A stretch of DNA of 5,326 nucleotides. Origin: a virus. Its lineage: Duplodnaviria; Heunggongvirae; Uroviricota; Caudoviricetes. The translations under genes were made by a program, and so were the position numbers. The DNA lies in the IMG/VR virus record IMGVR_UViG_2548877010_000005, positions 1 to 5,326 of that record. The stretch is one strand, 5' to 3'. Below are positions 1 to 1,395 of the stretch, piece after piece. The stretch's first letter is position 1. Each line of letters begins with the position of its first letter. The notes below the pieces were generated by a model that was not told where the DNA came from, ran no database searches, and saw nothing but the letters and a program-made list of their open reading frames with translations.

Positions 1-975
1 TTACACATCATTAGTACCTTCCTTATTTTTTGACTGGGACAAATTTGGGACCGATGGGTTCAGGATCGAGTCTATTTGCCGTGCGTGTTCGGTAAGGTGA
101 TTAGGTGCAAGGTGAGCATATCGACGAACCATTTCGATAGACTCCCAGCCTCCCATTTCCTGTAACACTGACAACGGGACTCCGGCTTGAACCAGCCAAC
201 TTGCCCAGGTGTGTCTCAAGTCGTGAAATCTGAAATCATCAATACCAGCCCGTCTCAGCGCCGCTTTCCAGGCTGTGTTTGCGTCATACCGCATCTTCCT
301 TACTGTTGGCGCTTTCGTTCCGTCTGGTTTGGTACAGCTTTCCTTGTACACAAATACCCAACGGTGATGATTACCGATTTGTTTTTTCAATACGCGACAT
401 GCAGTATCATTCAGCGCAACGCCAATTGCGCGGTTTGATTTACTCTCTTCCGGGTTTATCCATGCCACCCGGCGCTGCATATCTATTTGTTGCCATTCAA
501 GGTTGATGATGTTCGAGCGTCTTAAGCCTGTTGCCAGTGCAAATTCAACAACAGACTTTAATGGCTCCGGACATTCATCAATCAGCCTTTGTGCTTCATG
601 GGGCTCCAGCCAGCGGATCCGTTTATTCTTTGGTTGAGGCACTTTAATAATTGGTGCCTTATCGAGCATTTTCCATTCACGCTCTGCGGCTCTTAGCAGG
701 GCCTTTATAAATGAAAGATGCGTAGCCTTCGTTGCAACGGACGCTGGTTTTGGCGTGTATTCTGGAACAGGTTTCCCTTTTTTTCTGCATGCTTCTGCCC
801 TGAGTTTCCAGTTTTCCTCATGACGCCGGTTCGTCATTTTCTGCATTGCTGAATAAATTTTTGATTCAGTAATGTCTCTTAGTTGCATTCCTGCGAAATG
901 TTGAAGCCAGAATCCGATCTGCTTTCCATTGAGCCTGTTTCTCTGCGCGACGTTCGCGGCGGCGTGTTTGTGCAT
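1..975 (-). CDS. int: Phage tyrosine recombinase (integrase), 5'-truncated: core-binding and catalytic domains present, N-terminal arm-binding region absent
   Basis: 324-aa ORF with stop at 1-3. C-terminal tyrosine-recombinase signature is visible ([26 protein letters not shown] = R...HxxR...Y). From residue 20 ([10 protein letters not shown]...) onward it resembles P22-type integrases as I recall them, which are about 60-80 aa longer at the N-terminus. The first 19 codons ([19 protein letters not shown]) are the lambda N 5' coding sequence read in the +1 frame. All three frames upstream of 975 were translated and none encodes an integrase N-terminus. Confidence 0.85.
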
Positions 976-979
976 CCAT
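866..979 (-). pseudogene. N: Remnant of lambda-type antiterminator N: first 20 codons intact (arginine-rich boxB-binding motif), then 17 unrelated codons read out of frame through int
   Basis: Minus-strand ATG at 979-977 is preceded by AGGAG (991-987, 7-nt spacing). It encodes [20 protein letters not shown], identical to the N-terminus of lambda N as I recall it, then diverges ([21 protein letters not shown]). DNA matches lambda through ...CAATGGAAAGCAG and breaks at about 919/918. The 81-aa track ORF 866..1111 is this frame extended to an upstream GTG. Confidence 0.75.
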
Positions 980-1136
980 CTGGATTCTCCTGTTAGTTAG
1001 CTTTGGTTGTGTGTGGGAGTCGTAGTCCTGAACGAAAACACCCCGCAATGGCACATTGGCTGCTAATCCGGATTCGCACTTCCGGCCAATGCTTCGTTTC
1101 GTATCACACACACCAAAGCCTTCTGCTTTGAATGCT

Positions 1137-1167
1137 GCCCTTCTTCAGGGCTTAATTTTTAAGAGCA
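1137..1167 (-). promoter_or_regulatory. nutL: nutL antitermination site (boxA 1159-1167, boxB hairpin 1137-1151)
   Basis: Minus strand reads TGCTCTTAAAAATTAAGCCCTGAAGAAGGGC. boxB (GCCCTGAAGAAGGGC) is a 5-bp-stem hairpin identical to lambda nutL boxB as recalled. boxA differs at its first base (T for C). Confidence 0.75.
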
Positions 1168-1206
1168 TCACCTTCATGGTGGTTAGTGCGTCCTGCTGAT
1201 GTGCTT

Positions 1207-1235
1207 GGTATCACCGCTAGTGGTATTTGTGTCAA
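1207..1235 (-). promoter_or_regulatory. pL: Lambda-type leftward early promoter pL (-35 TTGACA at 1235-1230; -10 GATACC at 1212-1207; 17-bp spacer)
   Basis: Minus strand reads TTGACACAAATACCACTAGCGGTGATACCAAGCACATCAGCAGGACGCAC, co-linear with recalled lambda pL. The -10 hexamer is GATACC where lambda has GATACT, so the conserved last T is lost. Confidence 0.75.
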
Positions 1236-1269
1236 CATCGCCAGAGATAATTTATCACCGCAGATGGTT
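1209..1269. promoter_or_regulatory. Tripartite OL operator (OL1 1209-1225, OL2 1233-1249, OL3 1253-1269), lambda-immunity type
   Basis: Three 17-bp partially palindromic sites on the plus strand: TATCACCGCTAGTGGTA, CAACATCGCCAGAGATA, TATCACCGCAGATGGTT. OL3 is identical to recalled lambda OL3; OL1 and OL2 each differ at one base. No repressor gene is in the window. Confidence 0.7.
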
Positions 1270-1395
1270 ATCTGTATGTTTTTTATATAGATTTATTTTT
1301 TGCAGGGTTGTGTGGCTTGGGAGGTGATCGAGAGATCAGAATTGCGTTGTTTAGTGAGTTGCACCTATTAATTTTAAAATAAATACAATTGGTTA

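Follow-up and report, generated by a model that had tools for sequence, protein, structure and literature searches.

How did the leftward control region of a lambda-like phage come to be joined directly to the body of a P22-type integrase gene? The question is raised by the minus strand of the window (the whole stretch of 5,326 nucleotides analysed here, positions 1 to 5,326 of IMG/VR virus record IMGVR_UViG_2548877010_000005), where the promoter pL, nutL and the first codons of gene N lead without a break into an int gene that lacks its 5' end. The feature is the dead left end of prophage Sp1 (CP-933H of strain EDL933) of Escherichia coli O157:H7, which is already known and annotated. The fusion is very probably the scar of a single deletion by illegitimate recombination inside a lambdoid prophage that carried lambda immunity and an SfIV/P22-type int gene at thrW. 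Below, the truncated genes are called N' and int', and the product of the fused integrase frame is called Int'.

The window was scanned in full together with its list of open reading frames (ORFs) and compared with phage records by megablast. Window 1-925 matched the int genes of phages SfIV, SfI, SfV and SfII and of E. coli phage phi458 at 98.5-99.4% identity (SfIV 99.4%), whereas window 919-1397 matched the N/nutL/pL/oL region of phage ev099 (96.5%) and of lambda (positions 35300-35775, 91.9%). The latter match bears out an earlier reading of the letters alone (the original prediction), which had claimed colinearity with lambda pL, OL1-3, nutL and the start of N. Three-way alignments placed the junction at a single base. 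The minus strand is a perfect N-type match down to 919 and a perfect int-type match from 919 downward, and G919 is the sole base common to both blocks. This was so in the alignment with ev099 and SfIV, and again when N and int were taken from one and the same prophage, that of E. coli strain DX6 described below. Similarity around the junction is only weak (AAAGCAG versus AAGCCGG), and the extra bases in the BLAST matches are scattered chance matches. The breakpoint that had been put at about 919/918 is therefore exact, and the predicted switch near residue 80 of a P22-type Int was close, 82 N-terminal residues being actually lost.

Two overlapping frames cross the junction, and both were read correctly at the outset: the 37-residue N' peptide with its 20 N codons, and an Int' start at the second ATG of ATGGATGCAC, which on the ORF list and in the alignment is N sequence read in the +1 frame. 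A Shine-Dalgarno sequence, GGAG at 990-987, lies 7 nt from the N ATG and 11 nt from the second ATG. The premise that lambda N begins in the same way was checked and held: residues 1-20 of N' are those of lambda N, and Pfam N36 matched residues 2-21 (E=3.8e-10). In lambda N the arginine-rich boxB-binding motif occupies approximately residues 1-22, NusA binds at approximately 34-47 and RNA polymerase at approximately 73-107. Compared with N of DX6, ev099 and lambda, the window lacks codons 21-107, and the NusA- and RNA polymerase-binding regions are gone from N'. As the frame leaves N sequence after codon 20, N' is not a functional N protein. Natural full-length homologs that start like Int' were also looked for, and none was found: SfIV Int has 387 amino acids, and nearly all of about 120 listed relatives (71-100% identity) have 380-388 amino acids and start MSLFRRGEIWYASF. 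In the databases the Int' start and the 324-residue protein occur only as an O157:H7 entry, "integrase [E. coli O157:H7 str. EC4115]", found in at least 502 contigs.

The original prediction had also held that everything normally between N and int is absent, and had suggested that related genomes be compared for the undeleted arrangement. That arrangement was found when complete E. coli genomes were searched with the N'-pL segment. E. coli DX6 (NZ_CP126345.1) has a lambdoid prophage at the tRNA-Thr gene thrW which shares with the window its int gene (99.6% identical), its N-nutL-pL-oL region (99.6% identical) and the thrW attachment site, and shares with Sp1 the protein accessions of cI, cro and cII. 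When the junction is placed on the DX6 prophage, 5,339 bp separate its two sides. Unlike the window, DX6 keeps these 5,339 bp (int codon 82 to N codon 21) and has the ancestral pL -10 hexamer, GATACT. The interval holds int codons 1-82, a helix-turn-helix excisionase-like gene, five small genes, exo, bet, gam, kil, cIII, an ea10-like DUF2528 gene, sieB and N codons 21-107. Phage phi458 has the same general arrangement (int 99.5%, the 5' end of N 97.7% and nutL 95.5%). As the arrangement is undeleted in both DX6 and phi458, the structure is accounted for by a single deletion with 1 nt of microhomology.

A different origin, for which we see a slim chance, is that two tandem prophages at thrW recombined, an SfV-like element giving int and a lambda-like element giving pL-N. 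Tandem or alternative elements do occur at this site, Sp1 being followed there by the P4-like Sp2, and in strains 7784 and OkiPb01699 thrW is occupied by an SfV/CPS-53-like prophage whose int is of the same type. However, the single DX6 prophage already holds both halves together with the cI, cro and cII proteins of Sp1, phi458 likewise pairs this int with a lambda-type N region, and one 5.3-kb deletion suffices.

Other undeleted prophages were seen at thrW. That of strains 7784 and OkiPb01699 (locus 19112-40127) has an int gene 99.7% identical over window 1-919, and that of O55:H7 strain CB9615 (locus 12545-28001) is lambda-like with a different immunity. The N'-int' junction is absent from 7784, OkiPb01699 and CB9615 despite the same chromosomal flanks.

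In O157:H7 the junction is widespread. It was found in 215 records, which correspond to 214 of 5,426 complete E. coli genomes, with matches of 99.6-100%, and all those listed or inspected were O157:H7. With the identical junction in so many records, a chance match is ruled out. Wherever inspected it lies directly right of thrW; the window itself starts at the int stop codon and does not include thrW. O157:H7 chromosomes match window 1-2706 at 99.96-100% identity immediately to the right of that gene. The record of strain Sakai names "prophage Sp1, lambda-like phage" here, with ECs_0271 (window 1-975) as an intD pseudogene and ECs_0272 (window 866-1111, with the N' ORF inside) as a "phage early gene regulator". 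The Prokaryotic Genome Annotation Pipeline (PGAP) calls int' a "site-specific integrase, incomplete, missing N-terminus". Sp1 of Sakai is still bordered by a thrW 3'-end repeat at least 40 bp long, and the P4-like Sp2 comes after it at the duplicated thrW 3' end. Asadulghani 2009 scored Sp1 as repressor-positive and Cro-positive, with integration "D" (Int defective), excision/Xis absent and replication "D" (PMC2669165). No circularisation, replication or packaging of Sp1 was detected, and its residual early genes were clearly induced by mitomycin C in Sakai (PMC2669165). The prediction of a non-functional integrase and a prophage locked in place agrees with the defective Int, the absent Xis and the lack of circularisation in that work. 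In a further part of Sp1, replication gene O has a 23-bp insertion (Sakai locus 4292-4314) relative to the DX6 prophage, which explains its annotation as "frameshifted".

The 305 retained residues of the integrase are identical in amino-acid sequence (100%) to those of SfIV and DX6 Int. The catalytic domain is complete (Pfam PF00589 matched 1-171/172), and the Arg, His-X-X-Arg and Tyr catalytic motifs, RRYAH included, are present and identical to those of SfIV Int. The lost part was mapped with an AlphaFold2 model of full-length Int, used only as a secondary-structure map. Residues 1-170 of the model are confident (block means of the predicted local distance difference test, pLDDT, 72-91), whereas the catalytic half has a mean pLDDT of 59. 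The model has three strands and a long helix over approximately residues 1-51, followed by helices at 59-69, 76-90, 100-108, 113-129 and 143-162. Helix 59-69 is wholly lost and the 82/83 breakpoint falls inside predicted helix 76-90. The best Foldseek matches of the model were the full-length lambda Int structures 1z1b, 5j0n and 1z1g, with TM-scores of 0.23-0.27 that are low because the model is confident for residues 1-170 only. A PDB sequence search with full-length Int returned catalytic domains only (HP1 Int and XerA/C/D) and did not place domain borders. Residues 1-51 of full-length Int have a weak DUF6538 match, and the arm-type DNA-binding domain is absent from the window. By this map Int' has lost the whole arm-binding domain and, of the core-binding helices, the first entirely and the second by half. 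The loss of arm binding had been predicted; that core-binding helix A and half of helix B would be gone as well is an addition from the model. Given what is known of lambda Int and the loss of its arm-binding domain, arm-dependent recombination by Int' would be impossible, and core binding appears doubtful because the cut falls mid-helix. We infer that Int' is inactive.

The deletion may accordingly be pictured as follows. The ancestor was very probably a lambda-immunity prophage with an SfIV/P22-type integrase in thrW of the O157:H7 lineage. A deletion of 5,339 bp, as measured on DX6, with 1 nt of microhomology fused N codon 20, out of frame, with int codon 83, taking with it the NusA and RNA polymerase domains of N, sieB, ea10, cIII, kil, gam, bet, exo, the small genes downstream of exo, xis and the N-terminal part of Int. 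What is left is a pL-nutL leader driving the 37-residue N' and, from the overlapping second ATG, an N-terminally crippled Int'. Such a remnant should be unable to excise, because Xis and arm binding are gone and the core-binding domain is broken. Little expression would be expected, with lambda-type cI repressing pL in most strains and a T>C change at pL -7 in the window lineage. Loss of kil and of N function may have been tolerated or favoured once the prophage could not leave the chromosome.

Several points weigh against this account. The ancestral prophage is deduced from its relatives, and the O157 lineage itself has yielded no example of it. The 305 kept Int residues are identical to those of functional integrases and include the complete catalytic domain, so that residual arm-independent activity of Int' would be compatible with its sequence. 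Relaxed constraint on int' cannot be read from its O157-specific changes, which are few: a synonymous change, a frameshift in strain TR01 and, in the Sakai clade, I183L. Moreover, the AlphaFold2 model has low confidence in its catalytic half, so that only the N-terminal half supports the domain map. Note that a dN/dS-type (nonsynonymous to synonymous substitution) argument for constraint on int' was dropped, as three of the four synonymous differences from DX6 (217, 259 and 511) are private to DX6 among the sequences compared and only 664 is O157-specific.

The elements of pL are given with the other features of the window in Table 1. Over 919-1395 the window differs from the DX6 prophage at two positions only, both in the control region. 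At 1207 a T>C change at -7 converts the pL -10 hexamer from GATACT to GATACC, and at 1238 there is a G>A change in oL2. The final T of the -10 hexamer (-7) is one of the two most conserved promoter bases, and a consensus promoter scan that required T at hexamer position 6 did not report pL. Sakai, TT12B and 86-24 have the ancestral bases at these pL/oL sites. The -7C allele was found in 29 records and the 1238 change in a sub-group that includes strains 319 and 7636. No intrinsic terminator was predicted on the minus strand between pL and the int' stop codon. The Sp1 cI gene (Sakai locus 2441-3154) matches lambda cI at 233/237 residues (98%), and its operators are of the lambda type as well, so that the Sp1 remnant should confer lambda immunity on most O157:H7 strains. 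In strains 319 and 7636, the two complete genomes with the exact pL haplotype of the window, the pL-side copy of insertion sequence (IS) IS1203 is followed directly by tail-fibre assembly genes, and cI, cro, cII, O and P are deleted beside the IS (strain 7636 locus 6799-8573; strain 319 locus 8438-10212). Owing to the loss of the final T of the -10 hexamer and the deletion of the cI region in 319 and 7636, pL of the window lineage is probably weak and probably no longer under Sp1 cI control. The original prediction had ribosomes favouring the first ATG and making little Int'. The choice between the two ATGs is a secondary question, because pL is held off by lambda-type cI in most strains and the -10 hexamer of the window lineage lacks its final T.

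Table 1 Features of the window and substitutions found in the pL/oL region of sampled O157:H7 records
Feature	Position	Strand	Position at pL	Remarks
int'	1..918	-		Stop codon 3-1 plus codons 83-387 of an SfIV/SfV/P22-type tyrosine integrase; N-terminal 82 residues gone
Int' ORF	1..975	-		324 amino acids; from second ATG of ATGGATG (975-973); 19 N-derived +1-frame codons, then Int 83-387
N' ORF	866..979	-		N codons 1-20 (979-920) plus 17 out-of-frame int codons, 37 amino acids; start ATG 979-977, codon 20 at 922-920, stop 868-866
Deletion junction	918..920	-		N-derived side meets int-derived side at one common base, G919 (three-way alignments)
pL leader	980..1199	-		nutL and N Shine-Dalgarno; aligned to lambda 35581-35361
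boxB	1151-1137	-		Identical to lambda
boxA	1167-1160	-		TGCTCTTA versus lambda CGCTCTTA; TGCTCTTA also in ev099 and DX6
pL/oL	1200..1269	-		+1 near 1200; -10 at 1212-1207; -35 TTGACA at 1235-1230; 17-nt spacer
Operators	oL1 1209-1225, oL2 1233-1249, oL3 1253-1269	-		Alignment to lambda and ev099
Spacer, oL3 to gene downstream of cI	1270..1395	-		Lambda-like, interrupted by IS
IS1203/IS629	1396..2705	-		1,310 bp; annotation of matching records; element, its ORFs and Rfam ALIL frameshift pseudoknot (2254-2370) present
Substitution in -10 hexamer	1207		-7	29 records including F690, 7636 and the window
Substitution in oL1	1219		-19	2010C-3142
Substitution in oL1	1224		-24	Strain 148
Substitution in -35 hexamer	1230		-30	2009C-3378
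Substitution in -35 hexamer	1232		-32	F8492
Substitution in oL2	1236		-36	MB41-1
Substitution in oL2	1238		-38	Strains 319 and 7636 and the window
Substitution in oL2	1247		-47	86-24, CDC#03-98 and ATCC 43888

The two changes of the window belong to a larger pattern. The 215 junction-bearing records were sampled by identity class and those with extra mismatches were fetched. All eight substitution events found in window 640-1393 of the sampled O157:H7 records fell at pL -7 to -47 (1207-1247, 41 bp), and the window carries two of them (1207 and 1238). Eight of eight events thus lie within 63 bp (lambda-annotated -10 to oL3) of 754 bp, for which the uniform expectation is about 2e-9. Elsewhere in 640-1393 only small insertions were seen at the IS site, in strains now without the IS. 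The int' part has one polymorphic site, 618; flanking int', leader and spacer are otherwise invariant. The oR side behaves alike, so the clustering is not specific to the N'-int' fusion. Over 861 bp on that side the sampled differences occur only at Sakai-locus 3190, 3198 (oR2) and 3208 (the oR2-oR1 gap), and the sole fixed difference between O157 and DX6 is 3196, at the centre of oR2. These polymorphic sites and the fixed difference lie within 19 bp (3190-3208, the oR2/pR -35 region, outside the window). Between F690 and Sakai no other base differs in 3.2 kb (cI-cro-cII-O-P).

Two sources of the pattern were considered and rejected. Gene conversion from another prophage does not fit, as O157 genomes have a single copy of this pL segment (median of 1 place per genome) and none of lambda, ev099 and DX6 carries the derived bases. 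Sequencing artefact does not fit either: the variants are private to strains or clades and come from different laboratories, and most genomes have the ancestral base. Literature searches found no relevant earlier description of operator clustering. A T>C change at -7 is reportedly a signature of head-on collisions between replication and transcription. We offer, as a tentative and on balance unlikely reading, that the remnant is not inert. Its cI-controlled blocks have taken independent substitutions across O157:H7 lineages far more often than the DNA around them, with at least 8 events on the oL/pL side and at least 3 polymorphic events plus 1 fixed difference on the oR2/pR side, and either selection or a mutational hotspot would be behind this. 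Selection might bear upon how the pL-N'-int' transcript is expressed as well as upon the cI/Cro switch of the locked-in prophage, possibly because pL fires head-on to replication into thrW-proBA, or because an arm-less integrase or a boxB-binding N' is harmful. A hotspot might arise from promoter DNA that is occupied by repressor or RNA polymerase, or that is transcribed head-on. Were selection the cause, the switch of a "dead" prophage would still affect host fitness; were it mutagenesis linked to occupancy or collision, the locus would be a natural-population case of a process so far shown mainly in the laboratory. The clustering deserves specialist attention and a population-scale test, whereas the junction itself is ordinary prophage decay. 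The junction nevertheless documents how one of the 18 Sakai prophages became immobile, and it is a clean clonal marker of O157:H7 (214 complete genomes; absent from O55:H7 CB9615).

These data also bear on the proposal, a shade less probable than that of tandem prophages, that the fusion is functional and selected, pL providing the host with a beneficial SOS-inducible arm-independent recombinase and/or a boxB-binding N'. Amino acids 83-387 of Int' are unchanged with a complete catalytic domain, the arginine-rich boxB-binding motif survives in N' over its first 20 residues, the early genes of Sp1 respond to mitomycin C in Sakai, and the excess of substitutions in the control region is non-random. 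However, the O157 clone is young, which accounts for the identity of Int', the cut in the core-binding domain falls mid-helix, int' has a frameshift in one strain and I183L in the Sakai clade, and Sp1 does not circularise (PMC2669165). Moreover, several of the clustered substitutions (-7, -30 and -32) destroy promoter hexamers, the opposite of what is expected for a needed product. The deletion scar remains the preferred explanation of the fusion.

Beyond the spacer the window changes locus. The flanks of its IS1203 are unequal: TTA, on the left, is the duplicated target of the Sp1 copy, whereas TAC, on the right, belongs to the copy that sits in the nin region of an Stx2c prophage. As each flank matches the duplication of a different copy, the element appears to mark recombination between two resident copies rather than a new insertion event. 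The Stx2c prophage of strain 7636 and others matches window 1393-5326 at 100% identity, and in a whole-window search the joined Sp1-IS1203-Stx2c arrangement was found in 0 of 5,426 complete E. coli genomes. In strain 7636 these two IS1203 copies are on opposite strands, at 4.40 and 2.01 Mb, and owing to this orientation recombination between them would invert about 2.4 Mb. Large rearrangements in O157 are known to have Stx2c prophages as their boundaries (PMC8743559). The window is a hybrid of two loci, made either by a large inversion or by chimeric assembly across the repeat. That the N'-int' junction itself is an assembly or sequencing artefact can be dismissed as extremely improbable: although no complete genome matches the whole window and a mis-join at an IS element is conceivable, the identical junction stands in 215 independent complete records and the only suspect join, that across IS1203, lies 480 bp from it.

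Two further observations concern this side of the window. Strains now without the Sp1 IS1203 have small insertions at its site (about 1392), of 7 bp (TTATGGC) in strain 148 and of 1 bp in JEONG-1266. They resemble footprints of IS excision and put the adjoining hypothetical gene out of frame. On the plus strand at 4752-4950, Rfam matches above the gathering score were obtained for c4-a1b1 targets, isrK and C4 antisense RNA. These RNAs form a P1/P7-type antisense immunity module just upstream of an ORF6N antirepressor-like gene of the Stx2c prophage.

Among known systems, the Sp1 prophage of Sakai is the same element. Over 1-1393 the window differs from it at three positions (618, 1207 and 1238) and has the same junction, frames and thrW neighbourhood. 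In contrast to the window, Sakai Sp1 has no IS1203 at 1396 and neither the pL -7 T>C nor the oL2 G>A change, and window DNA beyond the IS is that of the Stx2c prophage, not the Sp1 immunity region. The control region is that of lambda in most respects, as boxB, oL3, the -35 hexamer and N residues 1-20 are identical, whereas the window differs in the first base of boxA (T, not C), in one substitution each in oL1 and oL2, in its GATACC -10 hexamer, in a 1-nt deletion in the leader and in the cut of N after codon 20. The integrase in turn belongs with the thrW-targeting P22-type enzymes of SfIV, SfV, SfII and SfI, with residues 83-387 equal to those of SfIV Int and a tRNA-Thr gene as the attachment site; these phages keep Int residues 1-82 and the adjoining excisionase gene, both of which are gone from the remnant.

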